The notes beneath the pieces were generated by a model that made no database searches, was not told the origin of the DNA, and worked only from the letters and a program-made list of their open reading frames with translations. The position numbers were made by a program, and so were the translations under genes. From the IMG/VR virus record IMGVR_UViG_3300021256_000077, positions 33,488 to 97,487 of that record: a stretch of 64,000 nucleotides of DNA. One strand, written 5' to 3'. Origin of the DNA: a virus. Its lineage: Duplodnaviria > Caudoviricetes. Below are positions 1 through 19,354 of this stretch, in pieces (position 1 is the stretch's first letter; each line of letters begins with the position of its first letter).

Positions 1-2
1 AT

Positions 3-587
3 GTACACCTTTGCCTTCACCACTTCATGGGCGTAGTCAATCAGCGACTGGTTGTACAGATCAAAGTCACGCTCGTACTCTTTGTACATATCGTTCATGG
101 TCTGTATTTCCTCGTCGTCATAGTAGCCACCCCACTCGGTGCTGTAGGTGCGCCGCGCTTCTTTTGCCGCCTGATCCTCCGGGCTTTCCCCGGCCACAAT
201 TTCTTCATACGGCTTATCGTTGTAGGCGATGTAGCCGTAATAGGCGGGCGTATTCATCATCTTCAGCCAGGCCTGTGCTGCGGCCTGATTGAAGAGCTTT
301 GTGCGTCTGGAAGCATTCGCCTTCAGGTACGCTTCGTCAGTGGCCACGGCATACTGGGCTTTCTTAATGCAAGCCTCCCAGTAAGCGTCCTTCCACTGTC
401 GGTTGTTGTCGTGGCAGTACTGTTCGACGGTTTCCCGGTCAATCACGTACTTCTTGCCACACTCGGTACACCATGCGTCCCTGTATGACATGGTGACCCA
501 TTCCCGGTTCTTCGGGAAAGCATCTAGCGGAAGGACTTTACCGCAGCGAATGCATGACTTATGTGGTACTGTGTTACTCTTCGCCAC
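3..587 (-). CDS. Zn-finger protein running off the window edge; possible terminase small subunit / packaging-associated protein
   Basis: Not in ORF track. GGAGG RBS, GTG start at 587, open to the window start: MAKSNTVPHKSCIRCGKVLPLDAF...AWCTECGKK...EWGGYYDDEEIQTMNDMYKEYERDF. The CxxC pair plus WG-x-Y motif resembles genes I recall upstream of terL in large Firmicute phages; function is inference. Confidence 0.5.
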   Translation of the reverse strand, partial: MAKSNTVPHKSCIRCGKVLPLDAFPKNREWVTMSYRDAWCTECGKKYVIDRETVEQYCHDNNRQWKDAYWEACIKKAQYAVATDEAYLKANASRRTKLFNQAAAQAWLKMMNTPAYYGYIAYNDKPYEEIVAGESPEDQAAKEARRTYSTEWGGYYDDEEIQTMNDMYKEYERDFDLYNQSLIDYAHEVVKAKVY

Positions 588-793
588 AATAACTTCCTCC
601 TTTTATGTCAGTTGTCTCCGTCGATGATAGCTTGTAATGCACGAATCAGCTCTATGCATGGGAAATCCGAACACCGCTCGCATTCCTCAAATGGTTTGAT
701 GATCATACCTGTTTCATCATGGCATTCGTCTCGCATTTCTTTCTCCTCTAATGAGTTATATAGGGTTCGGTTTACCGACATATGTTAGCACCA

Positions 794-845
794 CGGACAG
801 CCCCGGAGTCGAACCGGGCAACCGAAAGTCACCACTACGCCGCCC
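794..845 (-). ncRNA. Minimal tRNA-like RNA (acceptor stem + T-arm only)
   Basis: Minus strand GGGCGGC-20 nt-CCCGG TTCGACT CCGGG-GCTGTCC: 7-bp acceptor stem and perfect T-arm, no proper D or anticodon arm. Confidence 0.45.
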
Positions 846-976
846 GATGGCATCTGGCATATATCAGCACTGGTTTAATGGGTTGTTTATTCGCCCGTTC
901 GGGCAAGGATGTCAGACGCATCCGACATCCTCAAGCAAAGTCCGAAGACGTTTGCCGTAATTCCAAAATATGAAGG

Positions 977-1297
977 TTACTGTTCATAGAAAATTTCCAG
1001 CCCATAAGCCTTTGCCGCATCATGCTCAATCCGGCATCCTCTGGCGTTCTCCCAACCTTTGCAGAAATACACCGCATGGCAAAGACTCATGTTTTCCAGA
1101 GACTTGGCAAGAAAACAGAGCGGGATCTGAACCACGCCACGTTCCTTCATCTTCTCATCCGAATACCACTCGTCCGTGAAGAGAGTATTTACAATCTCAT
1201 AGCCCTTCGCTTCAAGCACTTTGATAGCACGTTCTCTGGTTTCGATAATTTCCTGTTCGGTCTTTCCAGCCATAGGCTGAGATAACATAGCTTTCAT
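977..1297 (-). CDS. DUF4406 / nucleoside-deoxyribosyltransferase-like protein
   Basis: Motifs SQPMxGK...LAKSLENMSLCHAVYFCKGWENARGCRIEH; AAGGAG RBS. Confidence 0.7.
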   Translation of the reverse strand: MKAMLSQPMAGKTEQEIIETRERAIKVLEAKGYEIVNTLFTDEWYSDEKMKERGVVQIPLCFLAKSLENMSLCHAVYFCKGWENARGCRIEHDAAKAYGLEIFYEQ

Positions 1298-1324
1298 GGA
1301 TCACCACTCCTTAAAGTGTTATTT

Positions 1325-1467
1325 AATGCGGGTCAGGATTTGCACCTGACATGGTGATGATATTGACCAACACTGCTGGATTTGCACCGAGTCAGTTTGC
1401 AGATTCGAACTGCGCTTCACACCACCGCTCGCTATGTGCTGCGTCTACCTATTTCCGCCACCGCAAT
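1325..1467 (-). ncRNA. tRNA-Leu-like shell RNA, copy 1 (expanded central arm)
   Basis: TGCGG TGGCGGAAATAGGTAGACGC ... ATGTCAGG TGCAAAT CCTGAC CCGCA; core shared with 3164-3349. Confidence 0.6.
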
Positions 1468-1796
1468 AAAGTCCAATTCACGTCACCAGCATTTTTATTA
1501 CATAGATCACACCGATCGCAACGAACAACCAATAAATCATGCCGGGCTTTTTATCCATGATACAGTCTCCTATTCAAGTTACATCCCGTGGCTTATATTC
1601 CGGGCAAAAGCACGGAGTTGTATTTTGCCATTCTTTTTCGGAAAGTGCCCTCGCCGTACCTCTTCCAGAACAAAAAGCTTTCGTTTTTGCATACTTGGCA
1701 TATTTGCATTTTTTACAAACAGCTTCGTTCGCATACGGAGTTGCATTCGATTTGCGTTTCAGCCACGTCTCATAGCGTCCCATGATCTATACCTCT

Positions 1797-2024
1797 TTAA
1801 TCAAGAACCGCCATTACAGGCTTTTCCAGTGTGACCTTTTGCCCACAATTGCAGCAATAGTTTGACATCTTTGGTGTAGGCATTCTGCAATGAGGACAGT
1901 AATATCTGCGGTTTTCAAACAGCAGTTGTTTTGCGGTGAAACGCTCTCGTATGCGTTGCCTCTGTTTTTCTGGTATGCCTGTGCTTTCCTTCGCAGCCGC
2001 ACGAATATACATATCCTCTACCAT
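1797..2024 (-). CDS. Small Zn-ribbon protein
   Basis: CPHC...YCCNCGQ motif. Confidence 0.6.
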   Translation of the reverse strand: MVEDMYIRAAAKESTGIPEKQRQRIRERFTAKQLLFENRRYYCPHCRMPTPKMSNYCCNCGQKVTLEKPVMAVLD

Positions 2025-2039
2025 TGTTCGCCATCTTCC

Positions 2040-2270
2040 TTAGCCGAAGTCAGGATAAACTACACTCCACTTATCTTCGACAATGCAATCGAAAACACGG
2101 CCAATATCAGGTGCACCCTGGATAGGATAACGAAGACCAGTATTGCTGTTGAACATGACGGTGTTGTTTTCCCATGTCCAATAGTCTCCGTCAAACGCCT
2201 CGTGGGCAATACACTTTCCGTTCCGCATTTCCCGGTATGCTTCTGCAAATGTCATTCGCATTTCCCCCAT
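2040..2270 (-). CDS. DUF2829 / Tad2-like small protein
   Basis: MTFAEAYREMRNGKCIAH...IVEDKWSVV matches the pattern MxFxEAlxxmkxGkkv...ilxdDWxiv. Confidence 0.5.
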   Translation of the reverse strand: MGEMRMTFAEAYREMRNGKCIAHEAFDGDYWTWENNTVMFNSNTGLRYPIQGAPDIGRVFDCIVEDKWSVVYPDFG

Positions 2271-2537
2271 TTATTCCCATTCTATGGGCTGGCCACAATA
2301 TGGACAGAATCTTGTTCCCATGTGCAGTCTCTGGACTCCCATGGCTCTGCTTGACACCGTGGAGCAATGCGGGCAATATGCATCACCGTACATATCCGTT
2401 TTTACCTTCTTCGGTTTCTTCAGCAATTCCAAAGCCGCTTTGGCAATGGACTGTACCTCGCTATTGCTGTGCCACTCACACCAGTTGTCATCCGTCAAGC
2501 CTTCAAGCCATCCCATTACCATTTCACGATCATTCAT
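2271..2537 (-). CDS. Zn-ribbon protein of the ALELLK paralog family
   Basis: MNDREMVMGWLE...AALELLK...CPHC...FCPYCGQPIEWE; RBS AAGGAAAGGA. Confidence 0.65.
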   Translation of the reverse strand: MNDREMVMGWLEGLTDDNWCEWHSNSEVQSIAKAALELLKKPKKVKTDMYGDAYCPHCSTVSSRAMGVQRLHMGTRFCPYCGQPIEWE

Positions 2538-3163
2538 TGTTTGTTCCTTTCCTTTCTGCTCCCACGCCAACCGCTCCGGGCATCCGCAGCAAGCGGCTTT
2601 TTCGGTAGCTGTCATTCTGCATCTGGCACAAGGATTATTCATACACATCATGATGTGATTCTTGAACATGATTGCTGGCCACCATCTCCTGCTGTATCCG
2701 CATGGTAGTTTTTGTGTCATAGAAAGTATCAAGCAAACCTTCTGCGCGGCACTTCGGACATTCGCACACCCATTGTCCGCACACACACTTAATGTCCCAC
2801 GGCTGATGATGCCGTTCGCAATATCCTTCCATGCTGGCCTCCTGTAGTAGAGATGCGATGTCCTTCTAAATGCCCATGCTAACCAGGCTCATCCTGCCCG
2901 AGTCTTGACCTATGCACGCTGACTGGACGTGCGCAGGACGCAGGTAAGATAAGCCCGTAACCTCTGGGCTGGAGTCACCCTGTTTAAATGTCCATGCTTG
3001 GTCCGCATCCAAAAGGCTCAGCGTGCATGGCTCTTACCGGAATGGAAAACCACGAATGATGCGGGCATCTCCCGTGGCGGGGTGCTACCCCTGATGCATG
3101 AAAAACGGGGCTACTTTCGCGGTTTGCAATTGCGCCCCGTAAAAGCCCGAAGGCTTTTATCTC

Positions 3164-3349
3164 AATGCGGGTGAGGATTTGCACCTCACATGACGTACTC
3201 TCCAAAATGCCAGCACTATTTCAGCGACGATTCGTACGTCTTACGTGTAGCGTCTACTTTAGCCGTGACCTGCGCCCCTGTAATCAGGTGTACTTGGATG
3301 ATAGACAACTATCCGCAGGAATGATGGCAATCTATTCCGCCACCGCATT
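3164..3349 (-). ncRNA. tRNA-Leu-like shell RNA, copy 2 (insert in D-loop)
   Basis: AATGCGG/CCGCATT 7-bp stem, TGGCGGAATAG-(~75 nt)-GTAGACGC, helix GACGTAC/GTACGTC, GTGAGG TGCAAAT CCTCAC. Confidence 0.6.
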
Positions 3350-3571
3350 CTTGAAAAAATGGGAACAACGCCGGAACGTCGATCCTTAAAAGCCTTGCGG
3401 TTTTTGCACGATGACACCGTCAAACTAGGACCTTCTGGATGTCAACCCGTCCGATCCTTACAACCTCGGTGATGCCTGAAGCCTGGGTCGATCTGTTTAT
3501 GCTGTGGCCTGGGTCGCTGACAACGACTGTACCACTGCCGCCTCCCGAGTGTGCTGTGCGGTTTCTTAGTG

Positions 3572-3647
3572 TGTCGGTGGTGGGATTTGAACCCACAGTT
3601 TTACGGTTTTAGAGACCGCCCCGTCTCGCCAATTGCGGCACACCGAC
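3572..3647 (-). tRNA. Amber-reading tRNA, anticodon CUA, Leu-like body
   Basis: GTCGGTG TG CCG CAATTGGCGAGA CGG G GCGGT CT CTA AA ACCGT AAAACT GTGGG TTCAAAT CCCAC CACCGAC A: full cloverleaf, anticodon at 3610-3612, A73, A15:U48, 3-bp D-stem, CCA not encoded. Confidence 0.92.
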
Positions 3648-3648
3648 G

Positions 3649-4242
3649 TTAATAGCCGTAAAGGTGGACGGGATTCAGAAACGGGTTGCTCAGTGTCTCC
3701 TGCATGTTTGCCCCGGCTGGAATCTGCCATACCGGGCCTTCTGGCTCAGCCTTAAGCCGCAAATGATACAGCATGTGATCATAGTCTTTCGGCGTCATGC
3801 TAAGCATCTTTGCCAGTTGGTATCCCAGCTCCCGCCGTTCTGGTGACGGGTCGTAGGTCGAAGGAAGCACGTGAGCAAGCGGTGACGGGTCAAGTGCCTC
3901 GTCATCCAGAATGAGTTGATCAAGAATCAAATCCTCGATCATCCACTGCCATGCCGTACCCCACACCGCGAACCAGTCCTCGTACTGCCCGTACTGTGGA
4001 ATCAGCCGCAGAATACGTTTACCATCTGAGGCCCACATGAAGTCGCAGAAACGGCTGAAGACATGCCGGAAGAAGAGGGTATCACCCGTTCCCCGTATGT
4101 AGAAAAGGCAGCGCAGAGCAAGGTTCGAGTCCTCGCTCCATGCCGCCTGGAATACATGAATCATTTCGTCCGGCGGAAGTCGGCTAAGCTTTCCCGCCAT
4201 GTCATACATCTTCTGAACCGCGCCATTCATTGGTTGCCTCAT
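3649..4242 (-). CDS. DUF2828-like (TROVE/Ro60-related) protein, N-terminal part only
   Basis: FQAAWSEDSNLALRCLFYIRGTGDTLFFR...LIPQYGQYEDW resembles the AlkllFylRD..G.GEr..Fr...ipeyGrwdDl pattern; ATGA overlap with the upstream stop. Confidence 0.6.
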   Translation of the reverse strand: MRQPMNGAVQKMYDMAGKLSRLPPDEMIHVFQAAWSEDSNLALRCLFYIRGTGDTLFFRHVFSRFCDFMWASDGKRILRLIPQYGQYEDWFAVWGTAWQWMIEDLILDQLILDDEALDPSPLAHVLPSTYDPSPERRELGYQLAKMLSMTPKDYDHMLYHLRLKAEPEGPVWQIPAGANMQETLSNPFLNPVHLYGY

Positions 4243-5480
4243 TTTAGTCTGATTGGATATGTGCAACGCCGTCCATATTCGCGTTCCATAACCAGAGCAA
4301 TGGCTCCAGGCTCTCCGCCCATCTCACACGCCACCGCATAGTCATTCATGCCGCAGATTGACGGGACGCGCAGGATCACGCTGTTGCCATCACGGGTTAC
4401 GCCCGCATTGAATTCCTCGGCCTTATGCAGATGGCCGCAAAGGAAGAAGTCCACAGGGACTCCGTAAAGGTTTACGCTGTCTCTGGCAATGTCGCTGATC
4501 TTCTTGCCAAACGCGCCGTCGCCATGAAGAAGCATGAAGTGGTAATCGAAGACGCTGAAGTACTCGCGCCGTTCGCCCTTGCCTTCCACGGAAACAAGCT
4601 CATTGTCCTGGAGTCTGGCTTTCAGATACCAGAGGATAATTCGCTCAAGGTTTTCATCCTCGAACTCGCGTGACTTCGCACCCAGCGGCCTGACCTCGGA
4701 ATGGTTGCCGTTCACAGCATGCACGACCACGTATGCGTATTCCGAAAGGGAATTAATCCATTCTGCGAGATATTCCGCAAGGTACATGGTCTGGTCGATC
4801 ACGCCGTACTCAAGTTTGGTGAGCTGGTTTTTATGAATCATACCGTCAATCATGTCGCCTACGAAACACAGGTGAACCACGCTGACTTCCTCGTGCATTA
4901 CGATGGCGGCCGCCTGATCAAGCAAGCTGTCCATCCGCTTCTCAAAGATTTCCCGGTTGTAGGCGTTCAGCACATCGTCCCCGCGAAGACCCTTGATGTT
5001 GAACTCCGCGCCGTAATGCATGTCGCCTATTCCAAGCACAAGCTCCCGGTTCTCGGTGCGATCCGTATAGACCGTGGGTGAAACTGGCGGGCGTTCAAGC
5101 TTGGGCATCTGTCGTGCGGCTTCCACGATGGCATCGGCCAGTTCCTGCCGTCTGGCATCGCTCCGCATGTAGGAATTGATTTCCCGCCTGAGGTCGCGCA
5201 GTTTCTGTTTGTCACCGTAGACCGAAGTGCCGTCGTAGGCCGTGACGTTTTCCTCATGGGGCGTGCTTGCACGACCCTGCTCAGCTTCCCCGGCCTCCAG
5301 GTCTGCCACGAACTCCATGCCCACCGCAGCCTTCCGCAGATGGTCGGGCGTCATGTCAAGGTCGTAGAGATCAACAAGTTCGCTCCAGTCTATATCGGCC
5401 TAGCCACGCTTCTTGGCGACCGCCTGTTCCAGAAGTTGTCGCCGTTCGGCCAGACACATCTCTTCAAATTTCCGTCCCAA
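4239..5480 (-). CDS. Calcineurin-like metallophosphoesterase (one in-frame TAG)
   Basis: GDMHYG, VGDMIDG, GNHSE, LLHGD, GHLH motifs. Reading through TAG 5400-5402 adds the N-terminus MGRKFEEM...KKRG*ADIDWSELVDLYDLDMTPDHLRK, with an RBS and a TTG start overlapping the upstream gene. Confidence 0.85.
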
Positions 5481-6180
5481 TTTCCTTTACCGCTCCTTCT
5501 GGCAGTCGTTCCATGTTTTGATCATAGAATATGCCGTTCTCGGATACGATGACCGTATCCATTGCGTAGTACATGCCAAGTCCCGTTTCCTGCCCGCCGT
5601 ACTGCGGTGCGCTCAGATGCCACGTGCGTCCGCCCCAGTGGAATATCCCTTCGGTGTCCACCCGGCATCGAGTGAGATCATGGAAGCCGCCAATCTTCCG
5701 CTCCATGGCTACGCGCTCCTGCCTGTCCAGCGTTTTCGGTCTGGGTGCGGATTTGCGCTTTACCTTGGGAATGGCCTCATCCAGCGTATCCATCACTTGC
5801 CGGAAAACGCGCCACTCCTCGGCGTCCCCATTGGGAATCCCGGGCGTAACGTGGCTGCCGATCTGCTCGGACACACTGGAGGGACATGAGGATACCGGGA
5901 TCTCCCTGGCCGCATGAACACGGGCCTTGTAGTCAGTCTCGATATCCTCCATGTCGCCCTGAAGCAGGAAATAGGCAAGGCTGTCCTAAAATCGCTTTAC
6001 TTTCATTTCTGGAGAGTAAAGGTCGCCATGGTCGTTATCCCAGTTGCGCAGGCAATAGGTTTCCCAGCGGCCTATCAGCTCGTTGGCAATCTCCATCCGT
6101 TCTTCGAAGCTGTCCGTTTCGACGAACCTCGGATACCCCGTCGGCTGCGCTATATGGAATCCTCTTCCCATGTTATCCAC
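5464..6180 (-). CDS. Hypothetical protein, 238 aa (one in-frame TAG)
   Basis: Track ORFs 5986-6180 and 5464-5952 are in the same frame, joined across TAG 5986-5988: KVKRF*DSLAYFLLQGDMEDIE. Confidence 0.8.
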
Positions 6181-6209
6181 CCTTCCCTATGTTTATATCA
6201 AACAAGTGG

Positions 6210-6833
6210 TCACTTTTCGCGCAACTCTTCCAGCGCACCCGCCGAAAGTAAGCCCATGTATATCTTGAGCATCTGATTTTCTTCGCTGTTCGGGTCATCA
6301 TCCTTGGCGAATTCTTCAAACGGTTTCAGCTCTTTGCTGTTCCGCCAGTTGATGAATGCCTGTGGATGTTCGAGTATGAGGTTCAAGAAATCGATAAAGT
6401 CGTTATATGCCTGGGGATGATCAAGCATGTCGTCGAGGTTCGGAAACTCGTCCTCATCGTCATCGTCCTCTTCTTCCGGCTCGTCCTCTTCCTCTTCGTC
6501 GAACCACGCTTTCCGCAGGTAGTCGAGATCGAACTTCGTCATATCCTCACCGTCCACATTCATGAACCAGGCATGCGCGTTGATTGCCTTCTTCACGTTG
6601 TTTTCCTCGATTGCCTGGGAGATCGCTTTCCCGGCCACCCCGGAATCTTCGTTGGCGTACTCGAGCAGAAGGCCGTAGATGACAAGATCAATTTCACCTT
6701 CGCTCGGATCGCAGACTCTGATCCAGCTCTTTACCGGATCATTCGCAAATTTTGCATGAGAATTAATCCAAAAATCTCCGTACATAAGTCCCTCCAAATT
6801 CTTCTCCCAGAAATAGGGATGTTTTTCTTCCAA
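6210..6833 (-). CDS. Acidic hypothetical protein
   Basis: 207 aa ORF with a long D/E tract; start uncertain. Confidence 0.6.
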   Translation of the reverse strand: MEEKHPYFWEKNLEGLMYGDFWINSHAKFANDPVKSWIRVCDPSEGEIDLVIYGLLLEYANEDSGVAGKAISQAIEENNVKKAINAHAWFMNVDGEDMTKFDLDYLRKAWFDEEEEDEPEEEDDDDEDEFPNLDDMLDHPQAYNDFIDFLNLILEHPQAFINWRNSKELKPFEEFAKDDDPNSEENQMLKIYMGLLSAGALEELREK

Positions 6834-6903
6834 AATCCGCGTTCAGATTTCAGGTGGACAATTTATCGACTTTCGATCTGGAACGCGAAATTTGAACTTG
6901 TTC

Positions 6904-7194
6904 TCACACTTGAGTGGTGAGTTCGGATGAAGCTGAACGTCTTACCCTGGCCAACCTGTCCGCCGCCACCTTTTTCTGCTCGTCTGTCATGTGCACTTTC
7001 CTCGGCGGGCTGATCCTAACCCAGCTTCGGGGAAACATCGCCACGATAGTGCCGTCATTGTCTTCCGGCCTCGTCTTGATCAACACATCGTCCGGGTGTT
7101 TCTTTGCAAGCCGCAGAATGGTGTTCTTCAGCTTCTTCTCGTCGCCACTTGCCCACACCGTTTCACTGTTCGTCCAATCGATTGCGCAATCCAT
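6904..7194 (-). CDS. Phage hypothetical protein
   Basis: GGAGGAG RBS; ...ENDGTIVAMFPRSWVRISPPRKVHMTDEQKK. Confidence 0.7.
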   Translation of the reverse strand: MDCAIDWTNSETVWASGDEKKLKNTILRLAKKHPDDVLIKTRPEDNDGTIVAMFPRSWVRISPPRKVHMTDEQKKVAADRLARVRRSASSELTTQV

Positions 7195-7306
7195 ATTCGT
7201 TTCTCCTCCACTCAACACTCAAGTCTAGTTTTGCTCTCCAATTTCGCGTTTCAAAGTCTGGGTGGACATTTTATCAGGTGCGACATCAGAACCGCCAAAT
7301 CAGGAA

Positions 7307-7636
7307 TCAATCCCTGACTTGAGCGTAGACTTCCAACCATCTGCGGTTGTTCGCCTCCACGATCTTTGCCACCGCCGACTGAAACGCCCGCCTGATCCGA
7401 TCCCGGCTAATCCCGGTGTACGAGGAAACGTCGCCCATCTGCATGCCCCGCTCCTAGCAAGCCACCACGCGCCCCTCCAGCTCGTCCAGGCCAGCCGACT
7501 CCTTAGCCGCATCAAGGGCGATGTAGGCCAGGATGGCGTCCTCCTTGGCTGGGGCCGCGCTCCGCTCCTGAATCTAGGCACGAACGATGCGGGCCTCACT
7601 CATCGGCAGGTAGCTCCAGTCTTCAATTCTCCTCAA
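7307..7636 (-). CDS. Sigma-70 region-4-like HTH protein (two in-frame TAGs; missed by ORF track)
   Basis: MRRIEDWSYLPMSEARIVRA*IQERS...AYIALDAAKESAGLDELEGRVVAC*ERGMQMGDVSSYTGISRDRIRRAFQSAVAKIVEANNRRW. TTG start overlaps the upstream TGA; TAGs at 7574-7576 and 7454-7456. Confidence 0.8.
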
Positions 7637-8067
7637 ATCCCATCCCCGCCTTCGGCGTTGATGGTCTTATCCTGTAGACCACCGCTTCCGCGCTGGCCTT
7701 CGCTTTCCCCGCTTTCGCCCGCCCCGTGCTTGGGCTTGCCCGCCTTGCCCGCCTTATCCTTTCGCATGGCTTCGTCGTACATCGCCTGTAGCTTTGCCAG
7801 CCTCACCTTGGTTTCCTTGTGCTCCTTGTTGAGCGCGTTGTACTCGTCGTCCGCCTCATCCAGGGTGCGCTGCATGTTGGCCAGCCGTTCATTCAAGGTC
7901 TCCACTTCGCTGATTCCGGCCACCGCGTTCACGATATCGTCCACGTGGCTTGCCATGATATTGCGGATGCGCTCCTTGGAAGACGCCACCCCGTTGCCCG
8001 TCTGCTTGGCCGCATCAAGTTTCCGCTTTGCGGACATCAGTTCATCAATCCAGCCTGAACTTGCCAT
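7633..8067 (-). CDS. Coiled-coil hypothetical protein
   Basis: AAAGGAGA RBS, heptad-rich sequence; first gene after the 8.14 kb promoter motif. Confidence 0.75.
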   Translation of the reverse strand: MASSGWIDELMSAKRKLDAAKQTGNGVASSKERIRNIMASHVDDIVNAVAGISEVETLNERLANMQRTLDEADDEYNALNKEHKETKVRLAKLQAMYDEAMRKDKAGKAGKPKHGAGESGESEGQRGSGGLQDKTINAEGGDGI

Positions 8068-8109
8068 TGTTATCTCTCCTTTCACTAGGGGTATCTTCTC
8101 CCCCTACGC

Positions 8110-8162
8110 TTTATAAGATCACAAGGTCACATGTTTTTTGCACGGGCCAGAAAAATTTTTTT
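8110..8162 (-). promoter_or_regulatory. Phage-specific promoter motif (CGTGCAA-N13-TTGTGATC-TTATA)
   Basis: One of six matching copies located just upstream of an RBS. Confidence 0.65.
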
Positions 8163-8196
8163 CGCCGCGGCCTGTTGACCACCCCGCCTGGTCCCT

Positions 8197-8630
8197 CGCG
8201 CGCGCGCACGCGTATATATAATTAATTAAATAATAGATTTAAATAAAATACTCTTAGATTTAGAGAGATATTGATTAAATAAAAAAAGATATAGAGTCAA
8301 CTCTATTAACAAAGTCCTATGTTTTAAGAACCTAGTTAAATTATAGAGTCTAGTATTAACAAACACCTTAATTAAAACATAAAAATACCATACAGTTAAC
8401 TCTATAAATATAATCCCTTCATGGAGTACTAGATACATACTCTATTTACTACATGCATTTAGTACTGAGTTTAAAACATAGATCTTAGTAGTTGGTAGTA
8501 TCTTTAAAACATACCAAAGATAATTTATTAGAACTATGTTTAAAATTATAAAGATCTATGTTTTGGTTTAGATAGAGTCGACTCTATTTATAAAGTTATA
8601 CGTTCTAAGAACCAAGTTTATATATAGAGC
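8197..8630. repeat. AT-rich repeated region at the strand-divergence point; candidate replication origin
   Basis: About 60-bp direct repeat (8291-8350 vs 8572-8630), each copy starting with the palindrome ATAGAGTC(A/G)ACTCTAT; very low GC compared with flanks. Confidence 0.6.
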
Positions 8631-9235
8631 CGGAAACGACGCCTGGGGGATGCTCGTTCGTCGGCACGTCGGTATGCGTCTGATGTGCTATGCTGCGATT
8701 GATTCAAGAAAGTTGACTGAAGGAAATTTTTATTTAAGCCGCAAAAAGGGGAAACAGGAACGTTTATGTTTTTTTTACCTACTCGCCCACTAGGTTATTA
8801 TGTTTTCGAACGTTAAGTTCCAGGCAATTTAATGCCACATCTGTTTTGCGATATTTGTGCGGCTATTACAAGTGCTCGGCCAGGCGTTGTCTACCATGTA
8901 ACTTTTATTATGACACAATAATTTTCGGCATTGTCAAGCTGCGTAAATTTATGTTGTATCAAATATTATTTTATCCAATACGATTTTCCAGTGCCGGATT
9001 TCATATCGAGTAGAAAGTGGAAGAAGACCGCGCATATTTTGAGTTGCGCTTGTTTTTAGTTTTTCTTTGCGGCTGAGGGCGAAGCTTAGCCTGGAGTTTT
9101 CCGGCGAAGGTGGGAGGTTGAGGTGGGGTGAGGAAAAGTTGACATGCGTTGAAAAGTATGTCGAAAAAAGGTTGCATGGGGGTTTAAAAAAAATTTATAG
9201 ATGTCAGACGTAAAATAATAAATCGTCTAAATCTC

Positions 9236-9620
9236 TGCTATACTTGAGTTGCCAAAGGGAACGGCGAAAGCCGAACCCCAAGGACAGGTCAGAATCCCCG
9301 AGTCGACCGGGAAAAGTCGACATCCGCACGAATCCCATCTCGCATGCGTGGCAATGCATGCGCGGTCGTTCCCCGTCTCACGTTTCCTGCGTGCCGTTGC
9401 GCGTTGTGACGGATTCCCACGCACTGCCCGCGCGTTGTGGGCTTGTGACCGGGCCATGGCTGTCCGTTTCCGCTGAACCTTGAAAAACGCATAGACCGGG
9501 AAAAGCTCCACAAGTAGCGGGCTTATTCTGAACTATGCGACCGCCCACGGTATACGTGGGATGAGCGACAGACGGGCGTCAGGCCCGGGCATACGTGCTC
9601 GGATTGTATCTGTTAACTCT
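9236..9620 (+). promoter_or_regulatory. Extended -10 promoter plus long structured leader with a boxA-like element
   Basis: TGcTATACT at 9236-9244; several GC hairpins; GAACCTTGAAAA at 9475-9486. Confidence 0.5.
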
Positions 9621-9657
9621 ACAACTCTGTCTATTTTGAAAAGGAAGGTATCTAACT

Positions 9658-10398
9658 ATGAAGAAGAATATCGCTGTGGAACTCTCTCTGCCTGAATCTA
9701 TCCTGTATCCTACTCTGTCTCGTGACTTTGAAGAAGTCAAGGCCTACTCTGACGCTACCCGCGCCTATGACAAGGCTGTCGCTGATGATAACGCTACCAC
9801 CACGTCTATTCAGACCGCGAAGGTGACAATGGACAGTGCCCGCGATGCCGTCGCTGAAAAGTCCCTGCGTACCTATGCCGTCAAGATGGAACAGCTCGCG
9901 CAAGAGGTGGGCAAGCCTGTTACCTACCTGAAAACCGTCTATCCGTACTATGCCACCTGTCAGATTTCCCATGATGGCGGGTATGGCGCGAATATCGCGA
10001 ATGACGGCGCGTGGGTGACGCTGTACGACGTCATCGACGTGGAAGCGTCCGGGATTGTGCGCAAGCTCTATCAGGAAGTCATGAAGCGCGTACAGGTCCA
10101 GTACATTCAGGAAGGATTCGCCACGGGCGAACTGGGCGAAAACACCGTATCCGGGAACTGGATTCGCAAGCAATTGCTCGAGATCGTCAGCAAGTACATC
10201 GACCCGGAAGGCGAATATCAGGCCGTAACCATGGATGTCAAGCAGATCGAGGGCGCGTTCCTGACCACCTTGAAGAACAAGACGAACGTGGTCAAGCTTC
10301 CGAAGGAAGACGAATTCGACCGGGTCGTGCTCAGAGTTCTGAACAGGATTTGCACAGGTGGCCACTATGAGTTCGAGGTCAAGAAGGCCCGCAAGTGA
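9658..10398 (+). CDS. Hypothetical protein, first gene of the rightward (early) operon
   Basis: Strong RBS AAAGGAAGGT, 246 aa, followed by a terminator. Confidence 0.8.
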   Translation: MKKNIAVELSLPESILYPTLSRDFEEVKAYSDATRAYDKAVADDNATTTSIQTAKVTMDSARDAVAEKSLRTYAVKMEQLAQEVGKPVTYLKTVYPYYATCQISHDGGYGANIANDGAWVTLYDVIDVEASGIVRKLYQEVMKRVQVQYIQEGFATGELGENTVSGNWIRKQLLEIVSKYIDPEGEYQAVTMDVKQIEGAFLTTLKNKTNVVKLPKEDEFDRVVLRVLNRICTGGHYEFEVKKARK

Positions 10399-10400
10399 TC

Positions 10401-10434
10401 GAAGGGGGTTCGCCCCCTTCCTTCTTTTTTTTTT
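10401..10434 (+). terminator. Rho-independent terminator
   Basis: GAAGGGG-GTTCG-CCCCTTC followed by a long T tract. Confidence 0.8.
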
Positions 10435-10828
10435 GTTCCTGGAACGACCAGCGCGTTCCAAGATTTTTTTTTTTTTTTTGGATTTTTTTTGGAGGTGCGA
10501 ACTATGGGATTGTTCATCACAAATTCTTCGGAACTCATGGAAATTCTCGGAGTTAATCAGGCCGTTGCTTCTAGCATGGCTAATAACATCGCTCGATACT
10601 TTGACAGTAGAAAAGAAAAGCTAATGACAACAATCGTTGTCATGTTTAAGACGCTTGCCCTTGCAGAGGTCATCGACGGCGAAACATTCGATTCAACGAC
10701 TATCTATTTCATGCTAGAAGATTGCTCATCCGCCCGCGAGTTCGTCGACGAGCTTCGCAAACTGAAGGAATACTATGCCTGAGGGCTGAACGGCCCTCTT
10801 TTTGTTTGGAAGAAAGGAAGGAATCATC

Positions 10829-11668
10829 ATGAAAAAAATTATTCGCGTTATCCGTAAAATGTGGCTACTCTCAAGAGAAACCGTCGCCCGCATCGTAACG
10901 ACCGCCCTGGCAATCATCGGAGCATACGAACAGGACAACGTCCCGGTCAAGATTTCCCTGAGCCGTGGCAACCGCAAGATCGGCAAGGCCTACAACTTTA
11001 GCACGATGCCCGTAATTACCTGTGGAGCATGCCACGACTGCAAACGGGGATGCTATGCCATGAAGTCAGCAGCCAGATACCCGACCTGCATCCGGGCATG
11101 GAGCAAGAACACATTCATGGTTAGACACTTCTTGTCCGATGTCTACGAACAGCTCACGGAAGAATTCCGCAGAGTGACCAAACCCGAAAACAAGTACTGT
11201 CGAATTCACGTGGCAGGTGAGTTCGAAGCGACCGACTACGCAAAACAGGCAATCGTGGACAAGACCACGAGAAAGTTCGGATGGGCAACACAGCCTATCG
11301 AGTTCACCCGGTGGGGTGAGCTTGCAATGTGGGTACAGCTTGCCCTGGAGCACCCGGACTGGACATTTTGGACCTACACCAAAATGCACTGGGTGGTCAA
11401 TCTGTACTGCCTGCTCCATGGCGGTAGGCATGCCGTCCCCCGCAACCTGACCATCATGTTCAGCCGTTGGGGGCTTCGAAGCAAGATCGACAACCCATAT
11501 GGATTCCCTGAGTTTATCACTGTTCTCACCGACGAGGGCGAGACCATGCCCGAAGGGTTCTGGGTCTGCCCCGGAAGGTGCAAGGAATGCAAGAAGGAAA
11601 CCAGCAAGGACGGCAAGTGCCACGGATGCCTTGCTAACGAAACCACTGTGACCGAGAACCATAACTGA
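10829..11668 (+). CDS. GP88-like (radical-SAM-related, Cys-rich) phage protein
   Basis: GNRKIG, TCGACHDCKRGCYA, RIHVAGEF, FWTYTK, NLTIMFS and C-terminal CPGRCKEC motifs. Confidence 0.7.
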   Translation: MKKIIRVIRKMWLLSRETVARIVTTALAIIGAYEQDNVPVKISLSRGNRKIGKAYNFSTMPVITCGACHDCKRGCYAMKSAARYPTCIRAWSKNTFMVRHFLSDVYEQLTEEFRRVTKPENKYCRIHVAGEFEATDYAKQAIVDKTTRKFGWATQPIEFTRWGELAMWVQLALEHPDWTFWTYTKMHWVVNLYCLLHGGRHAVPRNLTIMFSRWGLRSKIDNPYGFPEFITVLTDEGETMPEGFWVCPGRCKECKKETSKDGKCHGCLANETTVTENHN

Positions 11669-11957
11669 TGTGTGCCCGGGCGTGGTGGATTCCCGCCCGG
11701 GGAAAGGAAATGAATATGACAGATTATGAAATCATGCTGGAAAATATGCTGAATTATGAAGAAACGATGAGCGAAATTAATGCGGAAATTTACGAAAATG
11801 ATTGTATCTATGCGGAATGAGGAAAATACCCAATGCGGAAAATTCTAATGCAATTAATGGGCAAATTTGTCCACATAATCCATGCCGGAAATAATGCGCA
11901 AATTAACACATTAGCAGAATTTAATGGGCAAACCAACGAATAAAGGAGAAATGCATC

Positions 11958-14171
11958 ATGAAGTATGTACTGTATATGCCAAGTAAAAATATTGTTAAGG
12001 TATTCGACGTACGTGTTAAGAAAGACAGGCATGATATGTTCAATTTCATGCTGGAAAATTACGAAAATTGTGAGTCGTTCAAGATATATAGAGCGACGTT
12101 CGAGCTTGAACCTGTTTGGTGGACGGCGCGGAGTTTCCACGGCCAGGTCATGGAAATCGAGTTCGGCGACCGCTACGGGACGGTCTACGACACCATCTCG
12201 ATTCAGTATGGGGAGGAATGAGAAATGATCGCGATCTCTGGCAAATACGGCAACTTGGTATATGAAACCGTCGAACCAGAACCCGAACACGAACCCGCCA
12301 GGGTGGTCTACCATGGCCACCACTACGTGGAAGTGGATGGGCACATCTACGTAGAACCGGGCTATTACGCAGTCGATGACGGCAATCATCCGGGTTGGAT
12401 TGACACCTTCGTCACCAAAGAAGCTGCCCAGAAATGGGTGGAGCACCTTGAAAACGAGGGCTGTGCACCCTCATGTATCTACGTACTACATGATGAAGTA
12501 AACCGATGCGGAATTTGCAGATTATCGCAAATCCAATGCGGAAATTCTCGCAAATTGTCGCAAAATTAATGCGGAAAATTTGTAAATAATCGCAAATCCG
12601 TCCGGAAATTTCCGTGCGGATTTTTAGATTGTCGCAAAACGAAAGGAACAGTAATTATGATTAAGCAGATTAATAAACTTCAGGACTGGGTGCGGATGAA
12701 CTTCGAATTCATCCCTACTCGAATCGTCGCGAAACTTATGGAAGCCGGGGAAGACATCCCCGAACTGACCCCTACTGACGAGGAATACGACGACGTGCTG
12801 CCCATGTGGGGAACCATGTGGAGCTTCCATGAAGAACTCGATTCGAGCTTCATCAAAAAGATCGCGGAATGCGGATTCCGGGTATTCTATCAGGATGACC
12901 TTGGATATCTCATTGGAATTGACGGTGGCGGATATGACTTCATGGAAGCACACTGGCTTCCGTTGTATCGCGTATTTGGCGGAACGGATATTGACTAACA
13001 ACTAATGCGGACTTTCTCAGATATTTACACGCCAGGGCTGATTATCGCCCTGCGTTTTTAAGTGCGGAATTTTCGCGGAATTGAAAGGAGAAAAAATATG
13101 AGAACATATAAGCTATTTCGTGAAAAGAATGGCAAACTCTACCCCTTATTTGTAAACGCCAATGAGGAAGTGCCCGTTGGCGAATGGCTTACCGCTCAGA
13201 TCGGCGCGAAAGCTGATGATACGCATGTTAAATCCCGTCTTGGCGCGTTGTCACTTCGTCCGGGTTGGCACTCGTGCACCGTGCCGTTCACGGACTGGAT
13301 TGGCAAGAAAGGTACGGACGGAAAGCTGTATCAACGGCCCGGAACTGTGTGGGCTGAATGCGAAATTGACGGCGAACCGCAGGAAGTTACCGCCAGGAAC
13401 GGGCTGCGGGAACTCCCGGATACGTGGTATCACTTCCGCACCAACGCCAAGCAGATTTGGCCTTGGATCATTTCCCGGAAGATCAAAGTTGTGCGGACTC
13501 TGACCCATGAAGAGGTCGAGCGGATTTGCGAGTCGTACGGAATAAAAGCGCAGGAGGTGGCATAACATGGCAACCATCAGCACCAGGGACGGATATAAGT
13601 ATGTTCGCCTTGCGGAAATCCCCATGAACGATGGGAAGTTCAAGTTCAATGGTCGCGAATATGACTTGGATGCGGATTTTGAACCGATTGGATATCCCGA
13701 GTTTTACGACGATGAGGACGGTAAGCTGCGTTTCCTGTCCTATGTGGAACGTGAAGAGTGGCGCAACCCGCTCATGCTGGAAGTCGGGGAATACATGGAC
13801 GAGGTAATCATATACAGGGAGGAGAATGAAAATGACTAAGACTGAATTTATCGAGAGCATGCAGAACTTCATCGACGAACTCAAAGAAGGAAGTTGGGGG
13901 TGCTTTGATCCCTCAAAGGGTGTCACCCTTTTTGGAAACAAAAACTATGGTGAAATTTGGATTGATGTATCCGAAAGCTGCACGATCAACGCAAAGCTGT
14001 ACACCGCAACCGAAGAAGAAAAGAAAGGCTGAGGTGCGGAAAATGTTGAGATCAGAAATGTTGGAACAGGAACGCCGTGAGAAGCGCAATGCCATCACGA
14101 CGTTTTTGATTGAAGGAATCCTGACAGGCCTTATGGCAATGGGTCTGTTCTGGATGGCAATGCATGTGTGA
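11958..14171 (+). other. Run of small early hypothetical CDSs (11958-12221, 12225-12569, 12657-12998, 13098-13565, 13567-13839, 13826-14032)
   Basis: Consecutive + strand ORFs with AGGAG-type RBSs and TAA/TGA stops. Confidence 0.7.
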
Positions 14172-14187
14172 TGAAAGGAGAAATAAC

Positions 14188-15210
14188 ATGAATCTTTTAT
14201 CTCTCTTTTCCGGGATCGGAGCGTTCGAACGTGCGCTCCAGGAACTCGGCGCGGACTTCGACATCGTGAATTACTGCGAGGTCGATCCGTACGCCTCGAA
14301 AGCATATTCCCTTCTGCACAACATTCCAGAATCGCGGAATCTCTGGGATGTGCGGAAGGTGGATTGTAGGAGATACCCGTACGGGAAGCTTGATCTCCTG
14401 ACCTATGGCTTTCCATGTCAGGACATCAGCATTAACGGCAGGAAGCAGGGCTTCCGCAATGAGGACGGCACGACAACACGAAGCGGACTGTTTACGGAGG
14501 CCGTCCGTATCATCCGCGAGACCACGCCGAAGGTGGCGATTGCGGAAAATGTCAAGAACTTGCTGTCCACTGGGATGACGGAAGCACGTCAGATCGTGGC
14601 GGAAACGCTGAATCGATCTGGCTATAACAGCTATTGGGCAGTGCTGAATGCGCAAGGCTTCGGCATCCCGCAAGCCCGTGAGCGGGTGTTCATCGTCAGC
14701 ATCCGCAAAGATTTGGACGATGGGAGCTTCACCTTCCCTATCGGATTTCCGCTGACCAAACAGGTAGCGGACTTTCTGGATGCGGAAGTGCCAGAAAAGT
14801 TCGACATACCGGAATCACACAAGGCGGGCATGGAATGGCGAACCCACTATGAGAACATGGATGACCCGTTCGGCATCCACTGGGTCGGAAACCTCAATCA
14901 TTACAACTACCACAAGATGAACAGAGTCTATTCGGCGTACGGAAGCTGCGCCACTTTGGACACGGTTTCAGGTGGTGGTCGGGCAATGAAAATTCTCGCC
15001 CCGGATGGCAGGGTACGGTATCTCACCCCTGACGAGTACTTCAAATTGATGGGGTTTACGCAGGAAGACGTTGATCTTCTGCGGGCAAACGGGCTGAGCA
15101 ATTCCCGCCTGTATAAGATGGCCGGAAACAGCATCGTTGTCCCTGTCGCAAAGGCAGTATTGAAACAGGTTATCAATGCGGAATTTTCGCAGATCGAAAG
15201 GAGCGCATAA
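14188..15210 (+). CDS. DNA (cytosine-5) methyltransferase, orphan
   Basis: LFSGIG, GFPCQD, ENV, QARERVF and YKMAGNSI motifs. Confidence 0.93.
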   Translation: MNLLSLFSGIGAFERALQELGADFDIVNYCEVDPYASKAYSLLHNIPESRNLWDVRKVDCRRYPYGKLDLLTYGFPCQDISINGRKQGFRNEDGTTTRSGLFTEAVRIIRETTPKVAIAENVKNLLSTGMTEARQIVAETLNRSGYNSYWAVLNAQGFGIPQARERVFIVSIRKDLDDGSFTFPIGFPLTKQVADFLDAEVPEKFDIPESHKAGMEWRTHYENMDDPFGIHWVGNLNHYNYHKMNRVYSAYGSCATLDTVSGGGRAMKILAPDGRVRYLTPDEYFKLMGFTQEDVDLLRANGLSNSRLYKMAGNSIVVPVAKAVLKQVINAEFSQIERSA

Positions 15211-15212
15211 CA

Positions 15213-16728
15213 ATGACGGAATACAGAGTTTTGATAGTGACAGCCAATAATCGCACCATTCAGCTTGGTGTGATAACCGCTTCCCCTTCCGCAACGGTCG
15301 CGGAGTTTATTGGGGAACTTCATCGGGGATTCTACATCCCCCTTGGACTGCCGGAAGAGATGGTGAACGTAGTGTATAGCCGCAAAGATCACCTGTTCAT
15401 CGTGAAGGATTTACTTCATCGTGAAACCGTGTGCTATCTCCACCAGGTGGCGTAACGAATAAGGAGGAACGAACAATGGCTAACATTTTCACGGTCAAGC
15501 TCGAACGGATTGAAACTCTTATGGTTAACGTGATCGCAGATTCTGCGGAAGATGCGGAAGATATCGTCGAGTCCGCAGTATATGACGGACTTACAGTTTC
15601 GGACTTCTTTGAGAATGAAGTTGTCACGGAAAGTATCAGCGCCTCTGCCATGAGCAAGACCCGTGGTTATGGGGTTCAGATGCTTCCTGACGAGTTCTAC
15701 CCGGAAGAAGACGAGGGGGCGGGAGCATGAGTATATGGGAGTGGTTATGGCCCGACCTCTACTCGGGCCTCCCCCTTTTCAACTGCGGAATGAAGGTCGG
15801 GAAGATTTCCGTCAAGACCTGCGATAAATGCTACCTGCGGAGCGTCTGCAATATCTATGCAGAGCACGCCAACGATAAGAAGGAGGAAACGAAATGATTT
15901 ATACCGCTGAAGAAATGGAACTGCTCACAAACAATGTACAGCAGATTGAATCTTACCTGCGCGGATTGATGCCGGAAATTCGGAAGCCCATCCATATTGA
16001 GTTCGGCGATATCATTACCCACCCTGGTAACTATGGACGTGTGACGATGGAAAATGAGTACGAACTTATCGTTGATAATGATGATATCTGTGGTCGGCAT
16101 GGTTGCTTTACCCTCAATTTTTTCGGTAAAAGGTCTGACAGATCAGCTTGGACGGTTATTCCGATCTATACCCCGCGTGGTGCGGATTACATGATGAAAC
16201 TGTGCAGAGACTGGAAGGTTATCAAGTACAAGATTCTCGTTGAAATCAACAAGCAGAAATCGGAACTCGAACAACTGAAAAACTTTGAACTGTGAATAAG
16301 GAGGAAACGAAATGAAATGCTCTTGCGGATGCAATGAATTCTATGCACAGCAAATCTTGTATGTAAATGTGATTGTCGATGGTCATAACAATTTTCTGCG
16401 GAATGAGCATGAAAAAGAAACGGATAACTTTGTGCCGGGGCTAGATATTTATGACTGTGAAGCTCCGTACGGACCATTCATTTGTGTAAATTGCGGAGAA
16501 GTATATGACAAATTGGAGGGATGAACAATGGCAACCAAGATCAAAGACCTCAAGCATGGCGAGTTCTTCACGCTGAAACCCATTGCGGAACCTAAGGAAT
16601 CTCAGGTCTACGTCCGGGGCGAATATGATCGCTCCGAGCGGAAGTACTGGGCACAGAAATGGAACGACATCGGCGACGGCAAGTATCTGGACGGTAACCG
16701 CACTGTCTATACAGATTTCACATTCTGA
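15213..16728 (+). other. Small early hypothetical CDSs (15213-15455, 15476-15730, 15894-16295, 16312-16524, 16528-16728)
   Basis: Tightly packed ORFs, each with an RBS. Confidence 0.7.
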
Positions 16729-16742
16729 AAGGAGAATTGATT

Positions 16743-17621
16743 ATGGCTAAGTTCGATATTTATCAGATGGTAACCGACCGTATCCTGAACGACCTGAAAA
16801 ACGGCACTGTGCCGTGGGAAAAGCCGTGGACGAACACGACCGGGAATACGGTCGCCAGGTCGCACAACGATGGCCGGGTCTATTCCCTGCTGAATCAGAT
16901 GCTCCTCGGGATTCCGGGCGAATATGCAACCTTCACGCAGGTCAATAAGGAAGGTGGCAAGGTTAAGAAGGGCGCGAAGCAGAGCGTCGTGGTCTTCTAC
17001 AAGCTTATCCAGAAGAAGGAAAAGGTCACGGATGATGACGGCAACGAGGAAGAGACTACTGGCCGGAAGATTCCGATTCTGCGGTACTCCGGGGTCTTCC
17101 ATCTGGACGATACGGAAGGCATCAAGCCCAAGTACGTCAAGAGTGCAGGATTGAATGCGGACAATCACACGATTGATGAGATTGATGCGGTGGTTGCGGA
17201 CTATCTGAATCGCTCTGGCGTGGTGCTGCGCCACTATGAACAGGATAGTGCGTTCTATAACACCAAGTCGCACGAGGTGATCATGCCTAAGATCGGCCAG
17301 TTCAGAAATTCGGAAGCCTACTATGCTTCCCTCTTCCACGAACTCGGCCACAGCACCGGGAAAGCACTGGGACGCGACATGAGCGGGCAGAAAGAGAAGT
17401 ACAGCCGTGAGGAATTGGTCGCGGAGATTACTTCTTCCGTTCTCTGCAATCATTTCGGAATAGACTCCGCAAAATTGGAGCGGAACACGTCATCTTACAT
17501 CAAGGGATGGCTGAAGCCCTTGCAGGACGATCCGAAGATGGTCGTCTGGGCCGCAAATCGTGCGGAAAAGGCGGTCAACCTGATTCTGAACATCACGAAA
17601 ACGAACGAGGAGGATGAATGA
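16743..17621 (+). CDS. ardC: ArdC-like antirestriction / ssDNA-binding protein with zincin domain
   Basis: VPWEKPW, YSLLNQMLL, GGKVKKG, FHELGHSTG, YSREELVAE, SYIKGWL motifs. Confidence 0.88.
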   Translation: MAKFDIYQMVTDRILNDLKNGTVPWEKPWTNTTGNTVARSHNDGRVYSLLNQMLLGIPGEYATFTQVNKEGGKVKKGAKQSVVVFYKLIQKKEKVTDDDGNEEETTGRKIPILRYSGVFHLDDTEGIKPKYVKSAGLNADNHTIDEIDAVVADYLNRSGVVLRHYEQDSAFYNTKSHEVIMPKIGQFRNSEAYYASLFHELGHSTGKALGRDMSGQKEKYSREELVAEITSSVLCNHFGIDSAKLERNTSSYIKGWLKPLQDDPKMVVWAANRAEKAVNLILNITKTNEEDE

Positions 17622-18335
17622 TATGGCAAGCATGTACACGGACGGCAGGATGGTAATCATCATCGATATGGCTACATGGAACGGTAACCAGTATGGCCCT
17701 AGTTTCGAAGCGGACTTCTTCGAGAACGGAACTTTGAACTACATTGAGCAGATTAACTGCCGATGTGTGGACGATGTGCAGTACCTTATCGACCAAGCCA
17801 CCGACTGGAAGCTCGGGGTTGGCGACTATGTGGACGAACTTGAGGGTGAAACCGGGCATACGCCCGAAGATCGGCACGTTGACATAGATATCGTATGGGA
17901 AGCAAGCCCGAACGACCCGGAATACTTCAACTATGACAGCTGGACGGATGAGAATCGTCCGAACGACTGGACTTATGTAGTCCCGTGTCTGAATACCATT
18001 GCGAATATCGCAGAATGGCAGGGCAACATCACACATGAGCAGATTCTCGACGACTACAACAACGGTCGTCTGAGAATTCCCATGGGTTAAGGAGGAATGA
18101 GCATGAATAAGGAACGCAGGAAGTACATCCGTAACATCATCGAATCACTTGAGGTCGCAAAATCCGACCTCGAGCAGATTCGGGAAGAGGAACAGATGGC
18201 ATTCGACAATATGCCGGAAGGTTTACAGGCATCGGAACGGGGCGAAGCAATGGAAGATGCCATCTACAACCTGGAAGATGCGTTCGATTCCGTTGACAGC
18301 GCAATCGATACCCTGAACGAAATCATCGGGGAGGT

Positions 18336-19341: not shown

Positions 19342-19354
19342 GGAGGAGCGAACA

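Follow-up and report, generated by a model that had tools for sequence, protein, structure and literature searches.

A phage CUA tRNA with a leucine-type body and a short variable region: a probable leucine-inserting amber suppressor for late genes

[quoted passage not shown] The window (i.e. the whole stretch of DNA that was analyzed, 64,000 nt) corresponds to positions 33488-97487 of one virus contig of 97,487 bp, which is linear and estimated to be 84% complete. Coordinates below are those of the window unless the contig is named.

The tRNA gene and its surroundings

ARAGORN called one tRNA in the 64-kb window, at 3571-3647 on the minus strand, with the anticodon CUA. Rfam model RF00005 matched 3572-3647 on the same strand over the full model, with a score of 53.5 bits (gathering score, 29) and an E-value of 1e-8. 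This tRNA is also the sole one in the 97,487-bp contig, and an Rfam scan of window positions 1-9700 at a permissive threshold returned nothing besides it, including no ribozyme after the tRNA. Its parts are as follows.

3572-3647, minus strand: tRNA with a CUA anticodon and, on a Leu-type body, a short variable region (ARAGORN, Rfam, covariance model)
3610-3612, minus strand: anticodon CUA in the loop CUCUAAA; the plus strand shows TAG (sequence)
3621-3638, minus strand: D-arm with a 3-bp stem, a C13.A22 mismatch and the loop elements A14, A15, UU and G18G19 (sequence)
3597-3602, minus strand: variable region AAAACU, 6 nt, the last base being U48 (sequence)
3572, minus strand: discriminator A73; CCA is not encoded (sequence)

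The acceptor stem is paired at 7 of 7 positions and begins with G1-C72; the anticodon stem and the T-stem are each paired at 5 of 5. U8 and G9 are present, the T-loop is UUCAAAU, and the D-loop, AAUUGGCGAGA, contains A14, A15 and G18G19. From the sequence, U48 is predicted to be the tertiary partner of A15. After A73, the trailer begins CAC. A prior reading of the same DNA, made from the letters without database searches (the sequence-only reading), had listed CUA, G1-C72, A73, A15:U48, the 3-bp D-stem and the 6-nt variable region; all were present, and the D-loop letters that it gave are those of the minus strand.

ARAGORN labelled the gene tRNA-Pyl because of the anticodon alone. A tRNA-Pyl has a small D-loop without G18G19, a 6-bp anticodon stem and a 3-nt variable loop. 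The label was rejected, as the molecule has G18G19, a 5-bp anticodon stem, a 6-nt variable region and a standard T-loop. The tRNA at 3572-3647 is real.

The neighboring genes and one distant gene with a bearing on the analysis are listed next.

3-587, minus strand: C-terminal part of a 291-aa gene that opens the packaging/late block; the large terminase subunit (TerL), the portal and others lie beyond the left edge of the window
3649-4266, minus strand: 205-aa gene, PHROG 850 "RNA-binding protein", in the orientation of the tRNA and with its end 1 nt ahead of it
4239-5480, minus strand: exonuclease with one in-frame TAG (residue 27), upstream of the tRNA on the same strand
41206-41859, plus strand: RuvC-like resolvase, its halves joined by an in-frame TAG at 41458-41460 (residue 85); Pfam RuvC covers residues 42-192

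TerL starts about 3.9 kb downstream of the CUA tRNA on the same strand. When the 205-aa neighbor was compared with a protein atlas, only unnamed clusters were returned, all below 0.9. A scan for consensus promoters and terminators revealed no sigma-70-like site around the tRNA, and terminator-like sites did not exceed the shuffled expectation. Over window positions 3000-4600, no metatranscriptome contig from four runs covered 3572-3647; ordinary RNA-seq rarely captures tRNAs. Positions 3165-3504 were covered by metatranscriptome contigs of the source sample. Two look-alike non-coding stretches on the minus strand, 3164-3349 and 1325-1467, each have a T-arm-like hairpin followed by CCGCA, with a Leu-like 5' part at the end opposite to the hairpin. 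They share a 29-nt repeat (93% identical) with a compensatory change in the hairpin, and their fold z-score is only -1.45. In a phage collection, neither 20 kb of the window (megablast) nor the tRNA region (blastn) had a match.

In-frame TAG codons

In the late genes of this phage, TAG codes for an amino acid. The late block occupies the minus strand from contig position 600 to about 43,100; the portion inside the window contains the exonuclease and small genes. The PHROG and Pfam matches of late genes extend over their TAGs. The TAG-containing genes identified in the late block, all on the minus strand, include the following.

Late block, minus strand: terminase large subunit, TAG at residues 14 and 22 (PHROG/Pfam)
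Late block, minus strand: portal, TAG at residue 60 (PHROG/Pfam)
Late block, minus strand: 428-aa head protein (p428), TAG at residues 75 and 148
Late block, minus strand: 279-aa protein (p279), four TAGs
Late block, minus strand: Dit, TAG at residues 31 and 175
Late block, minus strand: 1,140-aa tail protein, TAG at residues 70 and 1134

With TAG taken as sense, the tape measure becomes one frame of 4,898 aa with 16 TAGs (contig 6873-21569, minus strand, outside the window), which joins six or more consecutive standard-code fragments on that strand. Gene calling with the standard code would divide it into at least 17 pieces. At 4,898 aa, the tape measure is remarkably long, given a phage contig of 97 kb.

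A rough gene call placed 36 TAGs among the 11,092 codons of the late arm, in which 22 of 22 genes ended in TAA or TGA; the plus-strand arm, which makes up most of the window, held 11 TAGs among 10,212 codons. The phage has what characterizes a suppressor system: an anticodon complementary to a stop codon, and in-frame TAGs inside conserved domains of its genes. Two of the 11 plus-arm TAGs end their genes, with a TGA or TAA 2-5 codons later (56505-56516 and 59130-59150); these TAGs probably do terminate translation, the second stop codon being a back-up while the suppressor is at work.

The late-gene TAGs are concentrated toward gene starts. The first quarter of the gene contains 23 of the 36 (p about 1e-6), and 12 of 20 when the tape measure is set aside (p about 9e-4); the first TAG falls within the first fifth in 10 of 12 TAG-containing genes.

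Kinship of the tRNA body

Prophages with related portals were found in Clostridia MAGs labelled Eubacteriales, Acutalibacteraceae, Christensenellales-like and others. Three Clostridia genomes with related prophages supplied the comparison set of 84 distinct tRNAs. Among these host-type tRNAs, the closest was tRNA-Leu(CAA), with 56/75 and 57/74 positions identical although the CUA tRNA lacks the arm. The top His, Ser and Thr tRNAs came next, and those for Tyr, Lys and Gln were far lower. A single pair distinguishes the acceptor stem, GUCGGUG/CACCGAC, from that of Leu(CAA), GCCGGUG/CACCGGC. The anticodon loop, CUCUAAA, differs from the CUCAAAA of Clostridia Leu(CAA) by the single change A35U, and A36-A37-A38 is kept. 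In bacteria, A36-A37-A38 normally attracts a modification of A37 that aids the reading of codons starting with U; the CUA tRNA may be modified in the same way.

The D-arm pattern is common to 21 of 21 aligned long-armed Leu tRNAs, from which the CUA tRNA departs in having C13 rather than G13 and one extra base after G19. A73 occurs in nearly all of the Leu tRNAs compared, as it does here. The variable region measures 6 nt, compared to 10-18 nt in host Leu tRNAs, and the molecule lacks both the long class II arm and the leucine anticodon (NAG or YAA) that characterize a bacterial tRNA-Leu. A covariance model built from 21 long-armed Leu tRNAs gave the CUA tRNA 55.6 bits; a Ser model gave it 44.4. 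The best non-Leu tRNA under the same Leu model, a tRNA-Thr, reached 53.3 bits, a margin of only about 2 bits. Because the model only weakly separates the CUA tRNA from class-I tRNAs, its score is taken as supportive, not decisive.

Taken as a whole, the comparison supports a Leu-type body for the CUA tRNA. The sequence-only reading had proposed such a body, a single change from CAA to CUA, and the rejection of Gln and Tyr, and these proposals held: the nearest tRNA is Leu(CAA), with which the anticodon loop agrees outside the one change, and the score under the Leu model is 11 bits above that under the Ser model. In related hosts, Gln tRNAs have U1-A72 and G73, compared to G1-C72 and A73 in the CUA tRNA, and Tyr tRNAs carry G15, compared to A15.

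Residues of homologs at the TAG positions

For an estimate of the amino acid inserted at TAG, the residues that homologs have at the same alignment columns were tallied. TAG residue 60 of the portal (X60; other TAG residues are named likewise) is L in 82 of 90 database homologs. As a single query against viral contigs, the portal matched an identical fragment only (L004). A profile scan of IMG/VR with the portal alignment as the query yielded 80 related loci, in which the TAG columns were read using tblastn. Among these relatives, portal X60 is L in 66 of 83, p279 X54 is L in 48 of 50, and p428 X75 is L in 65 of 78; p279 X67 is occupied by L (35), I (10) and V (3), and p279 X264 by L (24) and I (10). 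TerL X14 is a conserved column dominated by Ile (I 38, L 9, V 6). At X85 of RuvC, 9 of 10 homologs have L. The columns at TerL X22, p279 X195, p428 X148 and TMP X1255 are variable and uninformative. Within the 10-kb flanks that were used, most of the 16 tape-measure TAGs were without aligned relatives, and a search at an E-value of 1e-8 for homologs of Dit, with its TAGs X31 and X175, found none.

Leucine dominates six of the seven conserved TAG columns, and Ile, Met, Phe and Val are minor residues in most TAG columns. The summed column log-odds (in bits) were +13.2 for Leu, -8.1 for Ile, -17.4 for Met, -21.9 for Lys, -28.9 for Gln, -30.7 for Tyr and -33.0 for Ser. The in-frame TAGs that the relatives themselves carry also fall on Leu columns: L is present in 82/82 at a portal TAG of L014, in 84/84 at a portal TAG of L070 and in 76/76 at a p428 TAG of L041. 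The reading of TAG as leucine in this phage is therefore supported by alignment; it had been expected on sequence grounds, and the TAG columns do align with Leu and not with Gln, Tyr or Ser.

CUA tRNAs of related phages

The related phages have CUA tRNAs at the same place, about 2.4-2.9 kb before TerL. Of 24 that were compared, 22 have A73, most of them together with the Leu D-arm. The 24 have 17 different acceptor stems, almost all fully paired, and variable regions in the family measure 5, 6, 7, 8, 11, 16, 17, 18 or 19 nt. Two complete class-II Leu-type CUA tRNAs of 86 nt, L152 (G001:C35:100736-100820) and L153 (G001:C59:291007-291091), come from a MAG of Eubacteriales that holds a related prophage and also has RF1. 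Two related phages carry, in addition, short-armed tRNAs with true Leu anticodons (UAA, 75 nt, L032:1192-1266; CAA, 76 nt, L090:4287-4362), which are class-I-shaped and have the same Leu D-arm and A73. The sampled region of L014 holds only a short-armed CUA tRNA, yet its TAG columns are cleanly Leu. In this phage group, the short arm thus recurs and is tolerated in a Leu-type tRNA. Leucine as the meaning of TAG in the present phage is favored by three lines that are independent of one another: the TAG columns, the closeness of the tRNA to Leu(CAA), and the Leu-type CUA tRNAs of the relatives.

Some other tRNAs in these loci are unusual. Those at L014:4923-5011 and L015:5106-5193 (88-89 nt, anticodon UAU) are long-armed though labelled Ile, and ARAGORN assigned a four-base anticodon, gttg, to the tRNA at L019:3841-3921.

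A natural control was provided by Ser-type CUA tRNAs, which have G73 and a long arm (L072:7811-7898 and L082:2350-2433). They scored 78.4 and 68.6 bits with the Ser model, compared to 45.2 and 43.0 with the Leu model. The TAGs of L072 are located on Ser columns (portal, S in 83/83; TerL, S in 56/67). Since a Ser-type tRNA is accompanied by Ser columns in L072, the alignment is able to distinguish Leu from Ser, and its outcome is predicted by the type of tRNA body. Portal X17 of L082 is less clear (S 26, R 25, K 24); in L067, with no CUA tRNA seen in the stretch covered, the TAG column contains S (49) and A (31). The portal/TerL genes concerned (L072, L082, L067 and L066) are those of a sister clade within the same portal group. 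These alignments point to TAG-to-Ser reading beside TAG-to-Leu reading in related phages.

Charging of the tRNA and alternative explanations

The proposed course of events is as follows. The CUA tRNA would have been derived from tRNA-Leu(CAA) via the change of A35 to U35 and the loss of the long variable arm. After processing and CCA addition, it would be charged with leucine by the host LeuRS and would compete with RF1. Ribosomes would then read the 36 late-gene TAGs as leucine, among them those in the terminase, the portal, a protease/scaffold-like protein, Dit, the tail protein and the tape measure; a few middle genes that have a TAG, e.g. RuvC, would be served as well. Because the TAGs lie near gene starts, the tRNA is probably also a gate on late-gene expression that would set its timing: without the tRNA, late proteins would stop early and cheaply.

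At the sequence level, the CUA tRNA keeps the elements relevant to LeuRS (A73, U8-A14, A15-U48, G18G19 and a standard T-loop). The E. coli LeuRS identifies its tRNA by A73, A15-U48, G18G19 and the D/T core, not by the variable arm or the anticodon (PMC9976931). Variants of tRNA-Leu without anticodon and variable arms are still charged (PMC9976931, citing Larkin 2002). The LeuRS of Streptomyces coelicolor charges a natural short-armed tRNA-Leu(CAA) (Fan et al., PMC6614811); the charging hinged on a particular LeuRS domain, and not every LeuRS may accept such a tRNA (PMC6614811).

The sequence-only reading had held that a phage synthetase may be dispensable, and a search of the 97-kb contig returned no PF00133 class-I synthetase and no RF-1 domain. 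One match to the PCRF release-factor domain (12.6 bits, below the cut-off) was located in the coiled-coil tape measure and was taken as spurious. As no synthetase gene was found in the contig, charging would come from the host. RF1 was present in 3 of 3 Clostridia genomes checked, and one phage gene has 16 TAGs; very efficient suppression would therefore be needed. It is unlikely, in our estimate, that the host LeuRS is insufficient for this and that a phage factor (a synthetase, a tRNA-modifying enzyme or an RF1 blocker) is furnished by the missing part of the genome. A second tRNA or a helper gene could sit elsewhere, the contig being linear and about 84% complete; the high suppression required in hosts with RF1 would accord with such a factor, and most of the phage genes, including the 205-aa neighbor of the tRNA, are without known function. 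On the other side are the negative domain search over 97 kb, the small number of genes of at least about 800 aa (just the tape measure, one tail protein and a plus-strand gene of 1,074 aa), and the agreement of the tRNA itself with the known LeuRS rules.

Charging by the host LeuRS, the preferred explanation, was also weighed against a functional CUA tRNA that inserts a different hydrophobic amino acid (Ile or Met) or a mixture, as might follow if its unusual body were misacylated. The Ile-dominated column at TerL X14 and the minor presence of Ile, Met, Phe and Val in most TAG columns would be in keeping with this, as would the atypical body (short arm, C13, extra D-loop base), and an alignment does not distinguish Leu alone from Leu mixed with Ile or Met. 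IleRS and MetRS, however, need their own anticodons, which CUA does not provide (PMC9976931). Together with the dominance of Leu in six of seven conserved columns, the 21-bit deficit of Ile relative to Leu, and the kinship with Leu(CAA), this makes the insertion of Ile or Met quite unlikely.

A suppressor of the code-15 type that inserts glutamine, or one that inserts tyrosine or lysine by virtue of the CUA anticodon, is very improbable. Mischarging with Gln or Lys in E. coli affects many engineered CUA tRNAs, which counts in its favor. Recoded phages that have been published read TAG as Gln (bioRxiv 10.1101/2021.08.26.457843; PMC9523058). Gln, Tyr and Lys are, however, nearly absent from the TAG columns, with the strongly negative log-odds given above; the identity pairs of the CUA tRNA depart from those of the related hosts' Gln and Tyr tRNAs; and in pairwise comparison the CUA tRNA has little in common with tRNAs for Gln, Lys and Tyr.

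A decayed or idle tRNA gene, together with TAGs that are genuine stops, errors of sequencing or signs of pseudogenes, is hardly credible: the tRNA-Pyl label, based on the anticodon, and the position of the tRNA outside the coverage of RNA contigs, which rarely capture tRNAs, could be cited for it, but all stems are perfect, relatives keep the tRNA ahead of the late block, with acceptor stems that are diverged yet still paired, the TAGs lie in conserved domains of essential genes with relatives' TAGs at the same or other Leu columns, and an identical portal/TerL stretch is present in an independent IMG/VR contig (L004).

Relation to known systems

The E. coli suppressor supP (Su6) is a tRNA-Leu in which CAA is mutated to CUA; it inserts Leu at UAG, LeuRS being blind to the anticodon. 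The phage tRNA resembles it in the single CAA-to-CUA change on a tRNA-Leu. It differs in that supP is a chromosomal laboratory mutant of class II with its arm kept, whereas the phage gene is natural and armless. TAG also stands for Leu in NCBI codes 16 and 22, those of chlorophycean and Scenedesmus mitochondria. The meaning, leucine, would be the same in the phage, but the mitochondrial codes are organelle-wide and eukaryotic, and here the code would belong to a phage module in a standard-code host.

Among phages coded differently from their hosts, only TAG-to-Gln and TGA-to-Trp had been observed (bioRxiv 10.1101/2021.08.26.457843). The crAss-like, Lak and other gut phages with code 15 (TAG to Gln) or code 4 (TGA to Trp) (10.1101/2021.08.26.457843; PMC9523058) are alike in having a phage-encoded CUA tRNA and TAGs concentrated in late and structural genes and avoided in early genes. 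They have no matching synthetase, charging by the host is assumed, and timing of late expression has been proposed. TAG is Gln in those phages; the present phage differs in its Leu-derived body, in the probable insertion of Leu and in sparse recoding (about 0.3% of late codons). Code 15 is associated with TAGs on Gln columns and with a tRNA having U1-A72 and G73, neither of which was found for this phage.

The armless body has parallels of its own. The type-I tRNA-Leu(CAA) of S. coelicolor shares the short variable loop and is leucylated by a bacterial LeuRS; in contrast to the phage tRNA, it has a sense anticodon, is non-viral, makes no use of A73 and depends on a special LeuRS domain (PMC6614811). 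The minimal E. coli tRNA-Leu (Larkin 2002, cited in PMC9976931) was armless and leucylated, but it was engineered and non-viral.

The literature that was searched contained no report of a natural TAG-to-Leu phage; TAG in phages was described there only as Gln. The mode of suppression is therefore known from gut phages and the armless Leu body has precedents; the new element would be leucine at TAG, as judged from the alignments.

Implications

A broader account may be offered tentatively, as possible yet somewhat short of probable: a phage lineage of rumen/gut Clostridia would have a private TAG-to-Leu code with Leu-derived suppressors whose class-II arm was shed to variable extents, apparently more than once, and a sister clade with a Ser-type suppressor swapped in would have a TAG-to-Ser code. 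If this is true, the LeuRS enzymes of Clostridia in nature take class-I-shaped tRNAs as substrates. What a recoded stop codon means would, moreover, be labile between related phages and would be set by the anticodon-blind synthetase (LeuRS or SerRS) that serves the captured tRNA body.

There are practical consequences. Annotation pipelines that apply code 15 would place Gln at conserved Leu positions in this phage. The short-armed Leu body may be regarded as a natural experiment on the requirements of LeuRS, and the short-armed CUA tRNA may serve as a scaffold in genetic-code engineering. The early placement of TAGs in late genes leads to a testable model of translational timing.

Leucine and serine stand out in that their synthetases disregard the anticodon. 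A codon would therefore gain a new meaning most readily through suppressors with a Leu or Ser body, and the present locus and its Ser-type cousins would be instances of phages that take that route to recoding.
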